DNA from: Patescibacteria group bacterium
Lineage (GTDB): Bacteria; Patescibacteriota; Patescibacteriia; Patescibacteriales; UBA12465
Direction of reading: 5' to 3'
Length of the DNA stretch: 64,000 nt
Assembly: GCA_041656935.1 (NCBI GenBank)
Contig: JBBACQ010000005.1
Location: 1-64,000 of the forward strand
Of this stretch, positions 1,476-42,834 are shown piece after piece. The position numbers were made by a program, and so were the translations under genes. Numbering within the stretch: position 1 is the stretch's first letter; each line of letters opens with the position of its first letter. A model generated the notes under the pieces. The model saw only the letters and a list, made by a program, of their open reading frames with translations, was not told the DNA's origin and made no database searches.

Positions 1476-2936
1476 ATGGAAAATTTTTTCATCACTACAA
1501 CCCTACCTTATATTAATTCCGAACCTCATTTAGGTTTCGCTAAGGAAATAATAAACGCTGATATCATAGCTCGTTATAAACGACAATTAGGGTTTAATGT
1601 CTTTTTTAATACTGGAACCGATGAACATGGTAAAAAAATATATCAGAAAGCTCTAGAGGCAAATATGGAAATCTCAAAATATTGCGATAAGTATTCAAAA
1701 AAATTTTTAGAATTAAAAGAGGTTTTAAACCTGAGTTTCGATAATTTTATCCGAACAACCGATGAAGATCATATTAAGGCGGTACAGAATTTTTGGGAAA
1801 GATGTCGAGCTAACGGTGATATTTATAAAAAGAAATATAGTGTTAAATATTGTGTTGGTTGTGAAATGGAGAAAACCGATTCAGAGTTAGAAAATGGGGT
1901 TTGTCCTTTTCATCCTAATCAAGAAATAGAAAATATTGACGAAGAGAATTATTTCTTTAAATTTTCTAAATATCAAAACCAGTTGTTAGATTTTTATAAA
2001 AAAAACCCTGATTTTGTCCAATCATCTGGCCGATTTAAAGAGATAATAAGCTTTGTCCAAAGTGGCTTGAAAGATTTTTCAGTTTCTCGTTTAAAGGAAA
2101 AAATGCCTTGGGGGGTGCCAGTTCCAGAAGATGATACTCAAGTAATGTATGTTTGGTTTGATGCTTTGGTAAATTATATCTCCTGTTTAGGTTGGCCAGA
2201 TAATTTAGAAAATTTTGATCTTTTTTGGCCTGGTTTACAGGTTTGTGGAAAAGATAACCTTAGGCCCCAAACAGCCATGTGGCCGGCTTTTCTAATGTCA
2301 GCTGGCATAACTCCTCCTCAGAAAGTATTAGTTTTTGGTTTCTTAACTGTTAATAATCAAAAAATTAGTAAAAGTTTAGGAAATTCAGTTGATTTATTCC
2401 AATTAATAAAGAAATATGGGTCGGATGTTATACGATATTATTTAAGTAAAGAAATTTCGACTTTTGAGGACGGTGATTTTTCTTATGAGAAATTAGAAAA
2501 ACTTTATCTTTCAGATTTGTCTAATGGTTTGGGAAATTTAGTAGCTCGGGTTTCTAATTTAATTGAAAAAAATAATTTAGATATTAAACTAAGGAAGCCA
2601 GAATTTCAAGGATCTACTCCGATGATTCCAAAAGAGGAAAATAGCTTTTTTAACGAATTAGATAAAAAAATGAAGGAGTATAAGTTAAATGAAGCTTTAA
2701 ACTTGATAGCCCTTAAAACAAAAAAGACGGATGAGTTTTTAAGTCATAAAGCCCCTTGGAAAATGACTGATAAAAAAGAAATGACCGAGGTCTTACAAAT
2801 AGCTTCAGCCGATATTTTAGATATTGCTCTTTCGATTTTTCCTTTTATTCCAGAGACGGCTGATAAGATAATAAAACAATTTACAGCTAAAGAAATAGTA
2901 AAAGGGGAATCGCTTTTTCCTAAATTAATAAATTAA
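1476..2936 (+). CDS. metG: Methionyl-tRNA synthetase
   Basis: Class I aaRS. It has a HIGH-like PYINSEPHLGF, a zinc knuckle CVGCEMEK...CPFH, a KMSKS-like KISKSLGN and the WFDAL motif. Confidence 0.9.
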   Translation: MENFFITTTLPYINSEPHLGFAKEIINADIIARYKRQLGFNVFFNTGTDEHGKKIYQKALEANMEISKYCDKYSKKFLELKEVLNLSFDNFIRTTDEDHIKAVQNFWERCRANGDIYKKKYSVKYCVGCEMEKTDSELENGVCPFHPNQEIENIDEENYFFKFSKYQNQLLDFYKKNPDFVQSSGRFKEIISFVQSGLKDFSVSRLKEKMPWGVPVPEDDTQVMYVWFDALVNYISCLGWPDNLENFDLFWPGLQVCGKDNLRPQTAMWPAFLMSAGITPPQKVLVFGFLTVNNQKISKSLGNSVDLFQLIKKYGSDVIRYYLSKEISTFEDGDFSYEKLEKLYLSDLSNGLGNLVARVSNLIEKNNLDIKLRKPEFQGSTPMIPKEENSFFNELDKKMKEYKLNEALNLIALKTKKTDEFLSHKAPWKMTDKKEMTEVLQIASADILDIALSIFPFIPETADKIIKQFTAKEIVKGESLFPKLIN

Positions 2937-2945
2937 TCTAAAAAT

Positions 2946-3470
2946 ATGATAACGCTTGATTTAATTTTAATGATTTTTCTAGGGGCCTTTATTTTGTATG
3001 GATTTTACATGGGTTTTGTAAAAATGATTTTAAATTTGGCTTCTACGGTGGTAGCTATTATAATATCCATTAATCTTTACCTCTATTTTTATGATCTAGT
3101 GCCTTTTATTGGTTTCGGTTCAGAAAGTTTTGGTAAAATGTTGTCATTTTTGATAGTTTTAATCATAAGCAATTATTTATTAAGTTTGGTTTTCCAATTT
3201 ATTGCTAAACTATTAAAAATAATAACTTCTTTGCCCTTGGTTTCTTTTGTTAATCGTCTTTTAGGCGGAGGGCTAGGATTTCTTCAAGGAGCTTTAATCC
3301 TCGGGGTTATTATTTTTATGATGTCTCGCTATGCTATCACTAGTGCTTTATTAAACTCACTTATTTCTAAATCAGATTTAGCCCCAATTTTTGTTAAAGC
3401 TGTTAGTTGGTTAACTCCCTTGATTCCAGAGGGATTAAAAATGTTGGAATCTATTATTTTAATAGATTAA
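2946..3470 (+). CDS. CvpA-family membrane protein
   Basis: 174 aa with 4-5 TM helices. The N-terminus LDLILMIFLGAFILYGFYMGFVKMILNLAS resembles CvpA (colicin V production) family proteins. Confidence 0.55.
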   Translation: MITLDLILMIFLGAFILYGFYMGFVKMILNLASTVVAIIISINLYLYFYDLVPFIGFGSESFGKMLSFLIVLIISNYLLSLVFQFIAKLLKIITSLPLVSFVNRLLGGGLGFLQGALILGVIIFMMSRYAITSALLNSLISKSDLAPIFVKAVSWLTPLIPEGLKMLESIILID

Positions 3471-3531
3471 AAGTTGCTAAGAATTTGTTTTTAGATTAAA
3501 ATAAAGAGGTTATTTATTTAAAATAGAATTT

Positions 3532-4779
3532 ATGAATATAAAAATAGGGAAGGGTCTAGGTATTTTTTTAAAAACAGTTGTTATTTTATTAACAGCTGGC
3601 CTTATTTTTATTAGTGGAGCTTCGTTGTCTACTAGGAGTGTTGTTGTCCAGAAAATGTCCGAAAAAAGCATCTTATATTTAGGAAAAATAACTGGTAAAT
3701 ATAGTAGAAATAATAATCAATGGTCACAAAATGTTAGTTTTGATCTATATTGGGATGTTTGGAATATTTTAAAAGAGGGTTATGTTGATCAAGAGTTGGT
3801 CAATGATAAAAAGATGTTTTATGGTTCGTTAAAGGGCTTGGTTATGTCTTTAGACGACCCCTATTCTGAGTTTATGGATCCACAGGAAAATAAGGAATTT
3901 AATGATGATATGTCTGGCACCTTTGAGGGTATTGGAGCCGAGATTGGCATTAGAGACGATATTTTAACCATTATTTCGCCCCTAGAGGGTACTCCAGCTC
4001 AAAAAGCCGGATTAATGGCCGGTGATAAGATTTTAGAGATAAATGGTGAAATAACCAAGAATATGAATATTAATGAAGCGGTCAGTAAGATAAAAGGGCC
4101 CAAAGGAACTGAGGTGGTTTTAAGTGTTTTTAAAGTTGGTCTGGAGGATATTCAGGAAATTAAAATTATCAGAGATACTATTATTATTAAAAGTGTTTCT
4201 TTTGAAAAGATAAATGAAAATATTTTCTTAATTAAAATAAATTCTTTTAATAATGATACTGATTTTCTTTTTTCGCAAGCTATTAAAGAAATGATTTCTT
4301 CCCGTTGCGACAAAGTAATTATAGATTTAAGAAATAATCCCGGAGGTTACTTAGAAACTTCAGTTTTATTATTAGGCGAATGGATAAATGGGCAAACAGC
4401 GGTGATTGAAAAATTTGGTGATGGTCAAGTTGTTAATTATCCCGCCGAAGGATTAAATCGATTAACTGATTATCCAACAGTTATTTTAATTAATAACGGG
4501 AGTGCTTCAGCTTCAGAAATTTTAGCTGGGGCTTTAAAAGATTATAGTAAGGCCACGATTATTGGAGAAAAGAGTTATGGTAAAGGATCTGTCCAAATGA
4601 TTAAAACATTAGAGGATGGTTCAGCTCTTAAAATGACTGTCGCTGAATGGTTAACTCCTCAAGGGAGAAATATAAATGAGGAAGGAATTTTACCGGATAT
4701 TGAAGTGGTTCTAAGTTTCGCTGATTTAGAGAATGATCGTGACCCCCAACTCCAAAAAGCAATTGAATTTTTAAAATAA
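3532..4779 (+). CDS. Carboxyl-terminal processing protease (S41 peptidase with PDZ domain)
   Basis: N-terminal TM anchor. PDZ-like GIGAEIG...SPLEGTPAQKAGLMAGDKILEING. S41 catalytic region NNGSASASEILAGALKD...GEKSYGKGSVQ. Confidence 0.85.
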   Translation: MNIKIGKGLGIFLKTVVILLTAGLIFISGASLSTRSVVVQKMSEKSILYLGKITGKYSRNNNQWSQNVSFDLYWDVWNILKEGYVDQELVNDKKMFYGSLKGLVMSLDDPYSEFMDPQENKEFNDDMSGTFEGIGAEIGIRDDILTIISPLEGTPAQKAGLMAGDKILEINGEITKNMNINEAVSKIKGPKGTEVVLSVFKVGLEDIQEIKIIRDTIIIKSVSFEKINENIFLIKINSFNNDTDFLFSQAIKEMISSRCDKVIIDLRNNPGGYLETSVLLLGEWINGQTAVIEKFGDGQVVNYPAEGLNRLTDYPTVILINNGSASASEILAGALKDYSKATIIGEKSYGKGSVQMIKTLEDGSALKMTVAEWLTPQGRNINEEGILPDIEVVLSFADLENDRDPQLQKAIEFLK

Positions 4780-40640: not shown

Positions 40641-40705
40641 AAAAATAGCACTTTTGGTGCTATTTTGCAATTGCTCGGAGTCGCGGACGATGTTCGAAAC
40701 AAAAT
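40641..40705 (-). repeat. GC-box plus hairpin intergenic repeat, copy A
   Basis: Plus-strand sequence aaaatagcac-ttttg-gtgctatttt (perfect 10-bp hairpin, 40642-40666) followed by GCTCGGAGTCGCGGACGATGTTCGAAAC (40673-40700). It aligns to copy B at about 85% identity by eye. On the minus strand the hairpin is followed by a T-run, so it terminates gene 40717..41268. Confidence 0.7.
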
Positions 40706-40716
40706 AACTCTCACGA

Positions 40717-41268
40717 TTAAATATGACAATCTAAAATCAGAGAAAAACTATCATTAGAATATTTTTTAAGCGCTTTCTTAAGATCTTTTTTCCAATCAAG
40801 AAATTTCTGGTAATCATTACTTGTTTCATTAATATTCATGAATGCTTTTGGTGCCCTAATTAACTTAAAATCCGGCATTATAATAGTATCCGGAAATCTA
40901 TCATATTGATCAATATTTATTATTAAATTGTCAGTCATTTGCAAATCAAAAATATCATAATAATCAAAAAAATTAAGCTTTCCTAACGGCTTATCAATTT
41001 TTTTCTTGCATTGTTCAATTAAGGCATTCTTAAAAACGAATGAAAATTCATAAATTCCTTCTTCGTCAAATCCAGTTTCAGTTTTGTTTATTTCAAAAAG
41101 TTTTTCAGCTATAGCTTTGTTGTCCAATAAATCAATATCAAACAAGGAGCTAATATTGTTCTTCATTGCTTCAGATAAATATGCTTTCGATTTCTCATTA
41201 ATATTTTTTCTAATATTATCTAACGTTTTATTATCTGATTTTATAATAACTACGGCAGTAAATTTCAT
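40717..41268 (-). CDS. Hypothetical protein (183 aa)
   Basis: The ORF is bracketed by the two GC-box/hairpin repeats. No family recognised. Confidence 0.5.
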   Translation of the reverse strand: MKFTAVVIIKSDNKTLDNIRKNINEKSKAYLSEAMKNNISSLFDIDLLDNKAIAEKLFEINKTETGFDEEGIYEFSFVFKNALIEQCKKKIDKPLGKLNFFDYYDIFDLQMTDNLIINIDQYDRFPDTIIMPDFKLIRAPKAFMNINETSNDYQKFLDWKKDLKKALKKYSNDSFSLILDCHI

Positions 41269-41302: not shown

Positions 41303-41368
41303 AAAATATCACTTTTAATGCCATTTTGTCAACTTGCTCGGGGTCGCGGACGATGTTCGAACCAAAAT
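41303..41368 (-). repeat. GC-box plus degenerate hairpin intergenic repeat, copy B
   Basis: Plus-strand sequence aaaatatcacttttaatgccatttt followed by GCTCGGGGTCGCGGACGATGTTCGAACC (41336-41363). On the minus strand a TTGACA hexamer (41327-41332) directly follows the box. Confidence 0.7.
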
Positions 41369-41438: not shown

Positions 41439-41822
41439 TTAATCTTCTTTCTTTGCAACAACAGCTATGCTAACGGTTGTCTTTCTGCTAATCCAGTCAT
41501 TTTGGTCTTTGCTAGGAGTTTCTCCACCATAATGCCAAACAACTATCGCTCTACCAAAATTTTTGGTTTTTCTATTCCAATCATCAATACTAATCAAGCC
41601 GCGATGTACATTATCATTTACATTTTTAGAATCGAAATTTATTGTTTCCCAAATAAAAATCGTATCTCCGTAATTTGCACCAATGGTGTTAATAAAATAC
41701 CCATCCCCACCAAGACCATTAAATTCTAAATTGTCTACCCACACGTTCTTAGGAGCGCATGAGGATAAAAATAATCCAAGTCCTAAGACAACGATCATAA
41801 AAAATTTTGTTTTCATTTTCAT
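41439..41822 (-). CDS. Hypothetical small lipoprotein
   Basis: Signal peptide plus lipobox (LFLSSC). A perfect TTGACA-17-TATAAT promoter lies upstream and a terminator lies downstream. Confidence 0.6.
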   Translation of the reverse strand: MKMKTKFFMIVVLGLGLFLSSCAPKNVWVDNLEFNGLGGDGYFINTIGANYGDTIFIWETINFDSKNVNDNVHRGLISIDDWNRKTKNFGRAIVVWHYGGETPSKDQNDWISRKTTVSIAVVAKKED

Positions 41823-41930
41823 ATTATTTAAAGTTAAACATTAGATTAATTATTAAATCTACTAAATTATAATAAACTTAATAATTAACCTAATTCTAAC
41901 CTCTTTGTAAAAGTACTACTTATAATTAAA

Positions 41931-41959
41931 ATTATATCATGAATATTAAAATATGTCAA
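41931..41959 (-). promoter_or_regulatory. Consensus sigma70 promoter for lipoprotein gene 41439..41822
   Basis: Minus strand is a perfect TTGACA (41959-41954), 17-nt spacer, TATAAT (41936-41931). Confidence 0.6.
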
Positions 41960-41967
41960 TAGCATAA

Positions 41968-41997
41968 CAAAAATAGGATTATATTGTCCTATTTTTT
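41968..41997 (-). terminator. Rho-independent terminator immediately 3' of the tRNA-like element
   Basis: Minus strand AAAAATAGGA-CAATATAA-TCCTATTTTT. It has the same position and shape as the terminator after the genuine tRNA-Gln. Confidence 0.6.
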
Positions 41998-42004
41998 CAC
42001 TCGC

Positions 42005-42168
42005 TCGGGGACTAGGATTCGGCCACACGTCGCTAAGTCTCGCTTGCCCGCCCAAGGCGGACTGCGCTCACTAAGCGCTCTGGCCCGGCCTCGCGGTGTT
42101 CGCTACGCTCACACATCGCTCCGGCTTTCGAATCCTAGACGCGAAGTGCGCAGGCACTTCGCTTCCCC
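42005..42168 (-). ncRNA. Unclassified GC-rich tRNA-like structured element (candidate ncRNA, or a tRNA-derived scar)
   Basis: Positions 42005-42021 are identical to the tRNA-Gln 3' acceptor and T region at 42215-42231. With the trailer, 41992-42021 matches 42202-42231 at 28/30. GGGGA (42007-11) pairs with TCCCC (42164-68). CTAGGATTCG (42012-21) pairs with CGAATCCTAG (42129-38). There is a perfect 9-bp hairpin GCGAAGTGC-GCAG-GCACTTCGC (42141-62). The 107-nt core is about 67% G+C. Strand is assigned from the shared orientation with the tRNA and the terminator at 41968-41997. Confidence 0.4.
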
Positions 42169-42177
42169 TCACTCATT

Positions 42178-42208
42178 CAAAAAATCCAGCTCACGCTGGA
42201 TTTTTTTC
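42178..42208 (-). terminator. Rho-independent terminator of tRNA-Gln
   Basis: AATCCAGC-TCAC-GCTGGATT (42183-42202) flanked by A6 and T7 runs. It starts 6 nt after the tRNA 3' end. Confidence 0.75.
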
Positions 42209-42213
42209 ATTCG

Positions 42214-42284
42214 TTCGGGGACTAGGATTCGAACCCAGATAGCCAGGACCAGAACCTGGAGCCCTACCATTAGACGATCCCCGA
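42214..42284 (-). tRNA. tRNA-Gln (anticodon CUG), CCA not encoded
   Basis: Hand-folded 71-nt cloverleaf: TCGGGGA-TC-GTCT-AATGGTA-GGGC-T-CCAGG-TTCTGGT-CCTGG-CTAT-CTGGG-TTCGAAT-CCTAG-TCCCCGA-A. It has a 7-bp acceptor stem with U1-A72 (typical of bacterial tRNA-Gln), a 5-bp anticodon stem, a canonical T-loop, and anticodon CTG at positions 34-36. Confidence 0.85.
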
Positions 42285-42372
42285 CTGTGGTTCGCCGTAA
42301 CTTTAGCGTAGGCGACCTCCAACCGCCGTAGCTTTAACATAGACAATCTGTGTCCGCTTTATAAACAAAAAA

Positions 42373-42834
42373 CTACTTAACATCAATAATCTTGTATTTA
42401 ACTTCCCCTCTAGGAGTATCAACCAAAACCTCATCTCCCTTTTTCTTACCCAAAAATGACATCCCCAAAGGAGATTCATTAGAAATTTTTCCATTTATCG
42501 GATCAGCCTCATTAAAACTAACAATCACATATTCCTTTTCATTGCCATTTATCAACACCTTAACTGAAGATCCCATATCTATTTTCCCCTTTCCTACCCC
42601 CATGCTATCAACTACCGTTACATTTTTTAAAATACTACTCAACTCAATAATGCGCCCTTCATTTAAAGCTTGAGCGTCCTTAGCTTCACTATATTCAGCA
42701 TTTTCACTTAGATCACCCAATTCCTTGGCTCGCTCAATTCTCTCAGCTATCTCTTTTCTTTTAACATTACTTAGATAAGTTAACTCATCTTTTAATTTTT
42801 TATACCCTTCATGGGTCATAATTTGTTCATTCAT
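42373..42834 (-). CDS. greA: Transcription elongation factor GreA
   Basis: The N-terminal coiled coil contains RERIERAKELGDLSENAEYSEAKD-type sequence (IAERIERAKELGDLSENAEYSEAKDAQ). The C-terminus has SPLGMSFLGKKKGDEV. Confidence 0.9.
   Translation of the reverse strand: MNEQIMTHEGYKKLKDELTYLSNVKRKEIAERIERAKELGDLSENAEYSEAKDAQALNEGRIIELSSILKNVTVVDSMGVGKGKIDMGSSVKVLINGNEKEYVIVSFNEADPINGKISNESPLGMSFLGKKKGDEVLVDTPRGEVKYKIIDVK

Follow-up and report, generated by a model that had tools for sequence, protein, structure and literature searches.

A family of small non-coding cassettes with a conserved fold at tRNA 3' ends in Patescibacteria, described from a copy downstream of tRNA-Gln

The GC-rich element lying directly downstream of tRNA-Gln in a Patescibacteria genome is one copy of a family of small non-coding cassettes that is widespread in Patescibacteria and seems not to have been described. 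With a probability of roughly 60%, we consider it to be a non-autonomous integrative cassette of tRNA 3' ends, the RNA of which would be co-transcribed with the tRNA and matured by tRNA-processing enzymes. The whole stretch of DNA analysed, called the window here, comprises 64,000 nt (Patescibacteria group bacterium, UBA12465; assembly GCA_041656935.1, contig JBBACQ010000005.1, positions 1 to 64,000, forward strand). The element and its neighbours are described on the minus strand in window coordinates, and L-numbers denote related loci that were compared with the window. The features discussed are:

42213..42284, minus strand: intact tRNA-Gln(CTG) (ARAGORN; Rfam tRNA model, 52.7 bits)
42178..42206, minus strand: T1, terminator-like hairpin AAAAAAATCCAGC-GTGA-GCTGGATTTTTT (sequence)
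42002..42173, minus strand: type A structured RNA element (matches the family covariance model R1 over its full length, cmsearch)
42164..42168, minus strand: P1 5' strand GGGGA, paired with 42007-42011 (TCCCC/GGGGA; MFE fold and sequence)
42141..42162, minus strand: P2 side hairpin, perfect 9-bp stem with the 4-nt loop CUGC (MFE fold and sequence)
42129..42138, minus strand: P3 5' strand CUAGGAUUCG (MFE fold and sequence)
42022..42128, minus strand: GC-rich core, two arms and two variable hairpins (alignment A1, RNAalifold, helices 3-7)
42001..42021, minus strand: right end CGAAUCCUAGUCCCCGAGC, copy of tRNA-Gln positions 56-74 (sequence comparison)
41968..41997, minus strand: T2, terminator ending the element (sequence)
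41931..41959, minus strand: predicted sigma-70 promoter, TTGACA, 17 nt, TG-TATAAT (12/12 consensus matches)
41336..41363, minus strand: pseudo-tRNA-tail motif of 28 nt, GGTTCGAACATCGTCCGCGACCCCGAGC (sequence)
40673..40698, minus strand: second pseudo-tRNA-tail copy, TTCGAACATCGTCCGCGACTCCGAGC (sequence)

The sequence observations of the original prediction were all recomputed with exact agreement, and the observation is real. Positions 42001-42170 contain 110 G+C out of 170, compared with 11/60 at 41881-41940, the same figures as counted by hand. The repeat reported between 41992-42021 and 42202-42231 was recovered with 28 matches in 30 (tRNA tail and trailer), and its 17 identical nucleotides, TCGGGGACTAGGATTCG, are found at two places only, 42005 and 42215. 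The last 17-19 nt of tRNA-Gln (42213/42215-42231) make up the left copy of the direct repeat; the right copy is the right end of the element, which at the same time forms the 3' strand of P3 and P1. The 5-bp, 10-bp and 9-bp helices that had been paired by hand hold on recomputation, and all three are present in the MFE fold of the minus strand (-86.7 kcal/mol, z = -4.45; 0/200 shuffles as good). In P1 the partner strand at 42007-42011 is a copy of the tRNA acceptor 3' strand, and in P3 CTAGGATTCG (42012-21) pairs with CGAATCCTAG (42129-38), this 5' strand being the reverse complement of the 3' part of the tRNA T-loop and of the T-stem 3' strand. P2 is placed at, or at most 1 nt from, the junction of the acceptor-like and T-stem-like helices. 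Against model R1 the element (42002..42173) scores 170.5 bits with E = 1e-44 (cmsearch).

The element is not a one-off, since blastn and covariance-model searches gave 64 matches in metagenome loci, with homologues after tRNA-Gln in L004, L009, L062 and L048. The family counts at least 60 distinct members on low-GC Patescibacteria (CPR) contigs and is multi-copy across at least 14 adjoining tRNA species (Gln, Leu, Ala, Asn, Pro, Ser, Asp, Gly, Tyr, Glu, Met, His, Cys, Val), which was beyond what the original prediction could see. A tRNA is found directly upstream on the same strand in 34 of 51 members. Most tRNA-adjacent members have the last 15-21 nt of the tRNA in common with the element end, low-scoring ones show shorter or no tRNA-tail identity, and the repeat ranges from 15 to 57 nt across the family. 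Members are laid out as T1 (usually), a 5' arm, the two-armed GC-rich core, an exact copy of the tRNA 3' end and the native terminator. The cassettes measure about 170-200 nt, and the inserted unit of about 215 bp holds no ORF.

The 5' arm is complementary to the T-loop, T-stem and acceptor 3' strand of the neighbouring tRNA and is often split by the conserved hairpin. It follows the T-loop bases of the tRNA (TTCAATT of Pro is answered by AATTGAA, TTCAAGT of Leu by ACTTGAA), and the P3 arm matches the T-loop/T-stem of its own neighbour in Pro, Leu, Asp, Asn and Ser members. P1 also varies with tRNA type in other members (GAGGG/CCCTC, GCGGG/CCCGC, GTGCGGATG/CGTCCGCAC, GTGGAGGAGA/TCTCCTCCGC). 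Because of its G/C composition, P1 is barely longer than chance (5.8 against 4.6 bp in composition-matched shuffles), so that its support comes from the change with tRNA type and not from its length. Both P1 and P2 are missing in several members, for instance of the Ala and Ser types. The core contains the invariant blocks GAAAGCCGGAGC, GAGGCC, CUUAG, AAGCGAG and UUAGCGAC, and is 75-91% identical to copies at other tRNAs, including those on contigs of different G+C content. Its motifs are of RNA type, with GNRA-like loops and long invariant single-stranded blocks, and in the P3 extension members have tandem G-A pairs in place of Watson-Crick pairs. The same arm logic is combined with other cores (type B, the L017 type and a 71-nt mini version in L036), and partial or degenerate versions are present in L043, L017, L036 and the second unit of L095.

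The sense-strand fold covaries strongly, and its closing stem is made from the repeat. Among 60 distinct members 95.3% of the alignment cells are paired, compared with 77% in shuffles, and double changes occur in 34 of the 36 modelled pairs, these pair counts favouring structure because the alignment was fitted to the covariance model. The covariation score is 0.346 (0.03-0.05 for slid controls). In P2 (helix 1) 99% of the cells are paired, and each of the 7 modelled pairs has changed in a compensatory manner; in P3 (helix 2) 92% are paired, with double changes in 7/7 pairs. G-U and U-G pairs exceed A-C and C-A pairs (85 against 32), which points to the tRNA-sense strand, and members are always oriented with the tRNA-sense strand. 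The features of the element are thus not due to chance, since the architecture recurs in more than 60 homologues with covarying helices.

The unit has been inserted, and the tRNA tail is directly repeated on its two sides. An intact tRNA with a direct repeat of its own 3' segment is as expected of an integrative element that targets tRNA genes, as are the occupied and empty versions of the site: in the filled locus L048 the sequence behind the right end is the orthologue of what directly follows the tRNA in the empty locus L069, native terminators included. The empty locus L047 has the same layout, a terminator and then a TTGACA promoter. Across 44 GreA-syntenic loci the cassette occupies 12, and 32 are empty. 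The original prediction had named related tRNA-Gln loci lacking both the element and covarying helices as a point against it; empty sites do exist, but the helices are supported by covariation. It had also offered an att-type scar as an explanation, and here the tRNA-tail repeat is of attachment-site type and filled and empty sites are found, but it is not a scar, since it closes a structure that is conserved and under selection. Its second option, a tRNA gene invaded by an insertion, is not supported, as the upstream tRNA is intact and the side hairpin and core are conserved at different tRNAs; hairpin and core are therefore parts of the element itself rather than of a decayed copy of the tRNA.

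Within genomes the cassette becomes duplicated, it is found in tandem arrays, and pseudo-tRNA-tail sites are occupied as well. In L139 two copies 1.16 kb apart share 98.8% identity over 247 nt, two in L181 differ by 4 mismatches and one hairpin indel, and L162 carries a type A and a type B unit in tandem after tRNA-Ala. Assemblies break inside the element in L001 and L010. A circular cassette junction was not seen among the loci, the tandem units of L162 and L009 being the nearest proxy. In the window, the 28-nt motif at 41336..41363 is a putative empty secondary attachment site; in L181 a type A element lies immediately 3' of an identical motif. The two pseudo-tail copies bracket an orphan ORF of 183 aa (41268..40717), and a further orphan ORF of 127 aa (41822..41439) is located between the element and the first copy. 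Neither ORF had a Pfam hit or a homologue in about 200 related loci, which speaks against their travelling with the element. Cassettes are arrayed with ORF cassettes ending in a related motif. Filled and empty sites, near-identical copies, tandems and pseudo-tail copies together indicate an inserted, duplicating cassette at a tRNA-seeded hotspot.

The arms are heritable and specific for one tRNA species, and copies that reside together exchange their cores. At the 28-nt motif the copies (L181b, L092, L141, L139) retain tRNA-type arms, which suggests a crossover in the shared ...GAGC end and led us to reject the idea that the arms are copied from the target at each insertion. Over 48 conserved columns the cores of L004 (Gln) and L156 (Asn) are 100% identical, as are those of L179 (Gln), L162 (Ala) and L118 (Ser). 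Since identical cores stand under different arms, modules have been exchanged, and an ancient separate lineage for each tRNA type is weakened.

Judging from the sequence, T1 now probably ends the tRNA-Gln transcript, and it is part of the inserted cassette. An identical T1 accompanies elements in L009, L062, L097 and L010, and a second T1 type is common to elements at different tRNAs, in L004 (Gln), L156 (Asn) and L092 (no adjacent tRNA). T2 is, by analogy with orthologous empty sites, the presumed native terminator of tRNA-Gln. As the original prediction had described, hairpins after the element (41968-97) and after the tRNA (42178-42206) are visible in the sequence. A simple terminator scan reported neither of them, probably because the A-tract/T-tract extends the stem into the T run, and the T2 stem has only 2 G-C pairs. 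The predicted promoter at 41931..41959 would serve the next gene and mark the end of the tRNA/element transcription unit. Because T1 looks like an efficient terminator and the promoter scan of the window found no promoter between T1 and the element, transcription of the window copy is something that we infer. In L084, L117 and L155 the elements are located within tRNA operons and no terminator precedes them.

The inserted unit consists of a replacement trailer with the terminator T1, an arm complementary to roughly the last 15 nt of the tRNA, the core and a copy of positions 56-74. Such a cassette might circularise and re-integrate by recombination in the last 4-8 nt of the tRNA tail, with a recombinase presumably supplied in trans; islands with large serine recombinases use the same sites. 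The RNA would arise from the tRNA promoter by read-through or co-transcription, and the closing helix, which resembles the acceptor and T-stem, may allow tRNA-processing enzymes to set the RNA ends. The unit itself contains no ORF for an integrase, and a recombinase gene was present in no cassette. Genes for large serine recombinases lie antisense at the tRNA tail in L203-205, L052, L050, L060 and L031, and at the right end of the element in L118 and L139; there is none in the window, and elsewhere they occur only in separate neighbouring islands. Clustering of the ORFs neighbouring the elements, which is not an exhaustive domain scan, gave large serine recombinases as the only recurrent type and no integron-type or Xer-type recombinase. 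Since these genes overlap the tRNA tail in antisense, the right end of the element is complementary to the 3' end of their mRNA. The cassette junctions are unlike the island half-sites reconstructed from L205, and the spacing of the right end resembles that of attB (the chromosomal site) and not that of the island's own site, so that mobilisation of the cassette by the island enzyme is no more than a possibility. Nor is the element simply the end of such an island, as the islands in L203-205 lack the element, and in L205 the pseudo-tail motif and T1 stand between island and cassette.

The inability of the original prediction to place the element among tmRNA, SRP RNA, RNase P, 6S RNA or riboswitches agrees with the database searches. 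With Rfam 15 the element went unmatched both at the gathering threshold and at the permissive E<=10, as did nine other members at E<=1, and only tRNAs were matched in the window and members; the element thus belongs to no Rfam family. ARAGORN, run for tRNA and tmRNA, found only tRNA-Gln, and no remnant of a D-arm or anticodon arm was detected in the element by ARAGORN or Rfam. A tRNA (RF00005) or pseudo-tRNA was rejected, 42001-42173 having no Rfam tRNA match even at E<=10, as was a standard or permuted tmRNA, for which both programs were negative; a tmRNA has a tRNA-like domain whose T-arm is intact, a tag reading frame and pseudoknots, whereas in the element the core takes the place of the T-loop. 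Look-alikes of hammerhead, RNase P P4 and SRP seen by eye had no Rfam support. A group I intron, which would interrupt a tRNA between flanking exons and have a core recognised by Rfam, was likewise dismissed, because tRNA-Gln is uninterrupted and Intron_gpI was not matched; in Patescibacteria tRNAs such introns are located in the anticodon loop at position 35/36 (PMC13011429). A match of the core to a fragment of a known gene, IS element or vector would have refuted the original prediction. Blastn in distant mode gave no match to phage or plasmid records. In viral contigs three patterns produced GC-rich chance matches only, none confirmed by the covariance model. In the literature searched, no paper was found for the core sequence block and nothing on the element among Parcubacteria RNA motifs, and work on Patescibacteria tRNAs dealt only with the anticodon-loop group I introns, the remainder being general studies of integrative elements.

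The cassette resembles tRNA-targeting integrative elements and tycheposons, for which serial integration and tRNA-seeded island growth have been proposed (bioRxiv 10.1101/2020.12.28.424599). Common to them are the direct repeat of the tRNA tail flanking the insert, the position of newer inserts nearest to the tRNA, the accumulation of partial tRNA copies and cargo-only units downstream, the integrase-bearing islands at the same site and the replacement tail supplied by the element, by which the tRNA stays intact. Unlike them, the cassette measures only about 215 bp without an ORF and has a conserved structured RNA as its sole cargo, its repeated tail is base-paired with an element-encoded complement and closes the structure, and one core is shared across at least 14 tRNA species. 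K. P. Williams reportedly noted in 2002 that elements targeting tRNA gene 3' ends carry identity blocks from the T-loop to the 3' end. CIMEs of streptococcal ICEs are cis-mobilisable, integrase-less derivatives of integrative elements, and MITEs have an inverted repeat at either terminus and a target-site duplication whose length is constant. Like CIMEs and MITE-like elements, the cassette is small, non-coding and multi-copy, has attachment-site repeats and presumably depends on a recombinase in trans. In contrast to these elements, it did not arise by deletion from any autonomous element among the loci compared, and its inverted repeat (5' arm and right end) is at one end only; a MITE was rejected, as the arms flank only the core with T1 outside them, and the repeat of 15 to 57 nt is not of fixed length.

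Several known RNAs carry tRNA-like handles or mimic tRNAs, for example tmRNA, viral tRNA-like structures, the MALAT1 mascRNA and the bacterial Y-RNA-like YrlA. The element shares with them an acceptor-like helix stacked on a T-stem-like helix, with the rest emerging at the junction, and a place next to or within tRNA transcription units. Unlike them, it has a 107-nt core where the T-loop would be and no D or anticodon arms, its acceptor mimic is usually only 5 bp and absent in some members, and neither ARAGORN nor any Rfam model matches it. The original proposal of a tRNA-like ncRNA is accordingly borne out with respect to covarying helices, constant tRNA-sense orientation and the presence of some copies in operons, but not with respect to the missing D arm, anticodon arm and T-loop. 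The family might alternatively consist of host-encoded tRNA-mimicking ncRNA genes, the acceptor/T-stem mimic of which must match the neighbouring tRNA and the copies of which arise by local duplication, serving as a decoy, sponge or regulator of an enzyme, toxin or recombinase that recognises the tRNA 3' half, or as an antisense partner of the recombinase mRNA overlapping the tRNA tail. We regard this as possible but rather improbable. Strong purifying selection on core and arms with covariation, the constant scaffold with tRNA-specific arms, the side hairpin within 1 nt of the acceptor/T-stem junction as in a real tRNA body, the copies inside tRNA operons and the complementarity of the right end to the antisense recombinase mRNA would all suit such a gene. 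It accords poorly, however, with the sporadic occurrence in close relatives (12/44 loci) at clean filled and empty sites, the near-identical copies with tRNA-type arms at non-tRNA sites, the T1 that accompanies the element from one tRNA to another, the lack of P1 and P2 in several members such as those of the Ala and Ser types, and the decay of tRNA identity in diverged members, which suggests that identity was set at insertion and not maintained afterwards.

Folded single-strand recombination sites such as integron attC and CTX phage attP(+) show a further likeness, with inverted arms about 110 nt apart, a stem that reproduces a recombination target, a variable centre and cassette-like arrays. 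That the fold acts as single-stranded DNA, its stem imitating the tRNA-tail duplex for a recombinase and its core being a variable terminal structure without RNA function, appears quite improbable to us. A stem that is a duplex copy of the target, different cores under the same arm logic (A, B, the L017 type and the L036 71-nt mini), the arrays with ORF cassettes ending in a related motif and the tolerance of folded DNA for G-T wobble are in line with this view, but the core is conserved with invariant single-stranded blocks and GNRA-like loops, tandem G-A pairs occur in the core/P3 extension, the orientation is always that of the tRNA, terminators lie on the flanks, some elements are embedded in tRNA operons where transcription is obligatory, and no integron-type or Xer-type recombinase was seen among the clustered neighbouring ORFs. 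Integron cassettes carry the boxes RYYYAAC and GTTRRRY and go together with an IntI integrase; an attC site was rejected because the arms are tRNA-derived and without consensus boxes (R'/R''), and no IntI-type gene was seen in the clustering of neighbouring ORFs. Bridge RNAs and omega/reRNAs are encoded next to an IS110, TnpB or IscB gene and have single-stranded guide segments; such a scaffold was rejected, as no such gene family recurs nearby and the arms are paired together. An RNA-guided targeting module, with a scaffold binding a recombinase or nuclease and arms pairing with both strands of the tRNA-tail DNA, is very improbable. A constant core with exchangeable target-matched arms and a position exactly at its own target would fit, but the arms are fully complementary to each other and hence sequestered in a stable helix, they are not re-derived at new sites, no protein gene is conserved in cis in about 58 loci, and a guide matching the resident tRNA gene would target the host chromosome. 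Hardly credible is a decaying remnant, either a pseudo-tRNA with junk in the T-loop or the scar of a deleted larger island. The direct repeat of the tRNA tail and the partial or degenerate versions could be read in this way, but compensatory changes preserve the fold in more than 60 members, by which this explanation is largely refuted, the core is 75-91% identical at different tRNAs in contigs of different G+C, and ARAGORN and Rfam found no D-arm or anticodon-arm remnant. We favour the integrative cassette, from the account of which a function is nevertheless missing, since a purely selfish cassette needs no conserved core of 107 nt.

A better knowledge of this family may be of value for the biology of Patescibacteria, which to our knowledge have tiny genomes with few recognised mobile elements or regulatory RNAs. 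The family is abundant, strongly structured and absent from Rfam and from the literature searched, and it joins three topics that are usually separate: tRNA genes as sites of integration, non-autonomous elements of miniature size, and RNAs that mimic tRNA. Even if the cassettes are merely selfish, they explain why CPR metagenome-assembled genomes break at tRNA genes, mark integration hotspots where orphan genes gather and provide a covariance model ready for use in annotation. A bolder and improbable reading is that the cassettes encode programmable tRNA-specific RNAs, in which a constant scaffold with interchangeable arms matching the 3' half of a chosen tRNA might act in trans on this tRNA or its gene; if true, they might direct or block recombinase integration at tRNA tails, act as decoys for enzymes or toxins that bind the acceptor/T-arm, or swap strands with the tRNA. 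Should the RNA act in trans in a way that depends on the match of its arms to the tRNA, the reduced genomes of Patescibacteria would contain an RNA-based specificity module of a new class.

The GC-rich unit on the minus strand at 42002-42173 of the window belongs to a large family, of which it was the first to be noticed, and is not an isolated case. The locus is arranged as follows.

Features of the window locus
42834..42373, minus strand: greA
42285-42350, minus strand: GC-ish leader between greA and tRNA-Gln
42284..42213, minus strand: tRNA-Gln(CTG)
42206..42178, minus strand: T1, terminator between tRNA and element, hairpin and T-run
42173..42002, minus strand: element
41997..41968, minus strand: T2, terminator after the element, hairpin and T-run
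41959..41931, minus strand: perfect promoter TTGACA-17-TATAAT
41439-41822, minus strand: 127-aa ORF downstream of the promoter, no Pfam match
41363..41336, minus strand: pseudo-tRNA-tail motif, empty copy 1
40717-41268, minus strand: 183-aa ORF, no Pfam match
40698..40673, minus strand: pseudo-tRNA-tail motif, empty copy 2

The observations of the original prediction were reproduced on recomputation. G+C amounts to 110/170 at 42001-42170 against 11/60 at 41881-41940, 41992-42021 repeats 42202-42231 at 28/30, and the 17-mer TCGGGGACTAGGATTCG occurs at positions 42005 and 42215 and nowhere else. The pairing of GGGGA with TCCCC and that between the two 10-nt arms hold, the 9-bp hairpin with its 4-nt loop is exact, and all three proposed helices reappear in the minimum-free-energy fold of the sense strand (-86.7 kcal/mol, z = -4.45). 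The antisense strand folds about equally well, so that folding alone cannot decide the strand. A simple terminator scan listed neither T1 (42178-42206) nor T2 (41968-41997), probably because each stem can be lengthened by pairing of its preceding A-tract with the T-run, and because the G-C pairs of T2 number only two; a negative from such a scan is therefore uninformative here. The leader upstream of tRNA-Gln contains a hairpin (GGTCGCCTACGC) resembling the side hairpin P2 of the family, and a P2-like hairpin (ACAAGTCGCCTGCGCTACTTTGT) lies about 100 nt upstream of tRNA-Gln in the related locus L004. Other loci have a plain promoter in place of this leader, whose hairpin may be a relic of the 5' module of an older element. 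GreA places the window in Patescibacteria, near Falkowbacteria. Many clear Patescibacteria contigs (L002-L010 and others; GreA 70-85% identical, about 30% G+C) are titled 'uncultured Gammaproteobacteria bacterium', probably a default or wrong label from the assembly project.

The element does not belong to the tRNAs, the tmRNAs or any Rfam family. Rfam 15 returned tRNA-Gln alone, both for the whole window at the gathering threshold and for 41900-42400 at E<=10, ARAGORN reported neither a second tRNA nor a tmRNA, and nine other family members matched no Rfam family at E<=1. The finding is real and larger than the original prediction took it to be. The phage and plasmid collections contained no similar DNA, and the core block GAAAGCCGGAGC did not occur in the literature text searched. 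The group I introns described in tRNAs of Patescibacteria reside in the anticodon loop at position 35/36 (PMC13011429) and are a different thing.

When metagenome contigs were scanned with a single conserved block of the core, many genuine homologues emerged and were confirmed by blastn, ARAGORN and a covariance model of 18 members; there are 64 matches at E<1e-3. A tRNA lies immediately upstream on the same strand in 34 of the 51 full or nearly full matches, the species being Gln, Leu, Ala, Asn, Pro, Ser, Asp, Gly, Tyr, Glu, Met, His, Cys and Val. Most of these elements end in a copy of the last 15-21 nt of their tRNA, running from T-loop position 56 to one base past the discriminator. The T-loop and T-stem 3' sequence specific to that tRNA recurs, as its reverse complement, in the 5' arm (Pro, TTCAATTCCCA to TGGGAATTGAA; Leu, TTCAAGTCTCTC to GAGAGACTTGAA; Asp, CGAG to CTCG). 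In many members the acceptor 3' strand takes part in a 5-10-bp helix, P1, and the conserved hairpin P2 separates P1 from the T-stem-side helix P3. The sequence of P1 varies with the tRNA type, but its length exceeds that in composition-matched shuffles only slightly.

The fold of the sense strand is under selection. Its conservation was evaluated in an alignment of 60 distinct sequences that was fitted to the model and hence favours the structure; here standard pairs fill 95.3% of the cells against 77% after shuffling, 34/36 pairs show two-sided changes, and the covariation score is 0.346 against 0.03-0.05 with partners slid by 1-3 columns. None of 500 shuffles reached the observed pairing and covariation values. 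A plain MAFFT alignment analyzed with RNAalifold gave the same helices, with 19/36 pairs compensated. G-U/U-G pairs outnumber A-C/C-A pairs (85 vs 32), one pair being G-U in 35 sequences, and this excess points to folding of the tRNA-sense strand. Wherever a tRNA is present upstream, the element has its orientation. Several lineages carry the element inside tRNA operons with no preceding terminator, as in Tyr-element-Gly-Thr (L084), Cys-element-Leu (L117) and Met-element-Asp-Thr (L155), which implies that there it must be transcribed together with the tRNAs. Long stretches of invariant single-stranded sequence and GNRA-like loops occur in the core, and some members carry a tandem G-A motif instead of Watson-Crick pairs in the P3 extension; judged from sequence, these would be features of RNA type.

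Loci encoding close GreA relatives were collected (80 in all), and most of them have tRNA-Gln downstream on the same strand. Clear homologues of the window's core (type A) follow right after tRNA-Gln in L004 (90.6% over 149 nt), L062, L009 and L048. Another GC-rich core (type B) occupies the same position with the same end repeat in L022, L026, L071, L080 and L055, and L043, L017 and L036 harbor hybrid, third-type or miniature cassettes (L017 a third core type, L036 a 71-nt miniature). Among the 44 loci whose sequence extends 250 nt or more past the tRNA, some cassette is present in 12 and absent from 32. Without exception, the T-stem variant of the neighboring tRNA (CCTAG, CCCTG or CCCTA) reappears at the 3' end of the element and is matched by a complementary 5' arm. 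Type B follows the same logic as type A, with a tRNA-derived closing stem and an end repeat; its core starts with GGGATTCGAACAGG, includes GGACAAGTGAGC, has its own covarying fold (alignment A3), and also occurs in L205 (about 3.4-3.65 kb after tRNA-Ser) and in L162 at 4300-4480. L097 (421-700, minus strand) is chimeric or nested: a first A-type element stops in the second variable hairpin and is followed by the start of a second, divergent element (TTTAGGACGAGAAAGCCGGAGCC), which bears the shared right end.

The flank after the end repeat of L048 is orthologous to the flank directly after tRNA-Gln in the element-less L069. This orthology implies that the inserted unit comprises T1, the 5' arm, the core and one tRNA-tail copy, and that T2 is the native terminator of the tRNA. 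T1 goes with the element, since the same T1 was found beside elements in L004 (tRNA-Gln), L156 (tRNA-Asn) and L092 (a non-tRNA site). The unit also duplicates: two copies are present in L139 (98.8% identical over 247 nt, 1.16 kb apart) and in L181 (four mismatches and one inserted hairpin apart), L162 has A and then B in tandem after tRNA-Ala with three tRNA-tail copies, and L009 contains the beginning of a second unit. Two independent assemblies, L001 (a Logan assembly of the window's locus) and L010, end inside T1 or at the element start, and such breaks are consistent with an element that is repeated or variable in the population. Over the 48 best-conserved columns the core of L004 (Gln) equals that of L156 (Asn), and those of L179 (Gln), L162 (Ala) and L118 (Ser) are equal as well; L156 and L092 have T1, P1, P2 and arms in common but different cores. 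This is most simply read as persistence of tRNA-specific arm modules, with cores being exchanged or homogenized between co-resident copies via the invariant blocks.

Copies without an upstream tRNA stand directly after a 28-nt motif, GGTTCGAAC(A/T)TCGTCC(G/A)CGACCCCGAGC or a variant, which starts like a T-loop and ends like a tRNA tail; either a TTGACA box or a hairpin comes after each motif copy. The motif, written out as GGTTCGAAC(A/T)TCGTCC(G/A)CGAC(C/T)CCGAGC, was seen in the window, L030, L076, L181, L092, L141 and L139. Elements at such sites keep ordinary tRNA-type arms (Gln in L181b, Asn in L092 at a ...CCCCGAGC site). The arms are thus carried by the element, which rules out that they are re-derived from the target, and the last 4-8 nt must contain the crossover. 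The two motif copies of the window bracket the 183-aa ORF, and the 127-aa ORF, with a lipoprotein-like N-terminus (...LSSCAP...), lies between the element and copy 1. For neither ORF did Pfam or about 200 related loci yield a match or homologue; both have the look of strain-specific hotspot cargo, and the arrangement is reminiscent of a tRNA-Gln-seeded cassette array.

Large serine recombinases form a large family in Patescibacteria. In several loci their genes run antisense, with 3' ends that overlap the tRNA tail or the right end of an A-type element.

Serine recombinase genes
L203 6001-7567, L204 6001-7563, L205 5858-7419; antisense; at tRNA-Ser
L052, L050, L060, L031; antisense; at or just downstream of tRNA-Gln
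L118 127-1668, also L139; antisense; at the A-type right end
L116 3122-4468; same family

This suggests that tRNA tails are the chromosomal attachment site for serine-recombinase islands in Patescibacteria. In L205 a 3.4-kb island is bounded on its distal side by a pseudo-tail motif, beyond which come T1, a B-type cassette, the true tail repeat and then the native flank; given this layout, the simplest view of the pseudo-tail motifs is that they are distal junctions of islands of this kind. The motif exceeds its tRNA equivalent by exactly 5 nt, and by analogy this excess would match the known 5-bp offset between phage-side and bacterial-side half-sites of large serine recombinases, reportedly described by Rutherford and Van Duyne. 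The arrangement resembles that of tycheposons, which are tRNA-seeded, serially accreted islands (bioRxiv 10.1101/2020.12.28.424599). The tRNA-Ser island of L204 also contains a reverse-transcriptase (RVT_1) gene at 2461-3714, flanked on both sides by duplicated PLD-like and ABC-type genes.

These facts fit most likely a non-autonomous integrative cassette of miniature size that carries a structured RNA as its sole cargo. No copy contains a recombinase, the spacing at the right end is that of the chromosomal site, and the cassette junctions are unlike the island half-sites reconstructed from L205. Neither a circular form nor a phage or plasmid copy was found in the records searched. We propose with moderate confidence that the cassette circularizes by recombination between the two tail copies and re-integrates at tRNA tails or pseudo-tails. 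With less confidence, the RNA would be made by read-through or co-transcription with the tRNA, and tRNA-processing enzymes might trim its ends via the acceptor/T-like closing helix. A trans-acting, tRNA-specific function of the RNA is a possibility that we retain mainly because the 107-nt core is so strongly conserved. The element is best classed among the tRNA-targeted integrative elements, as a variant that bears a new structured RNA.
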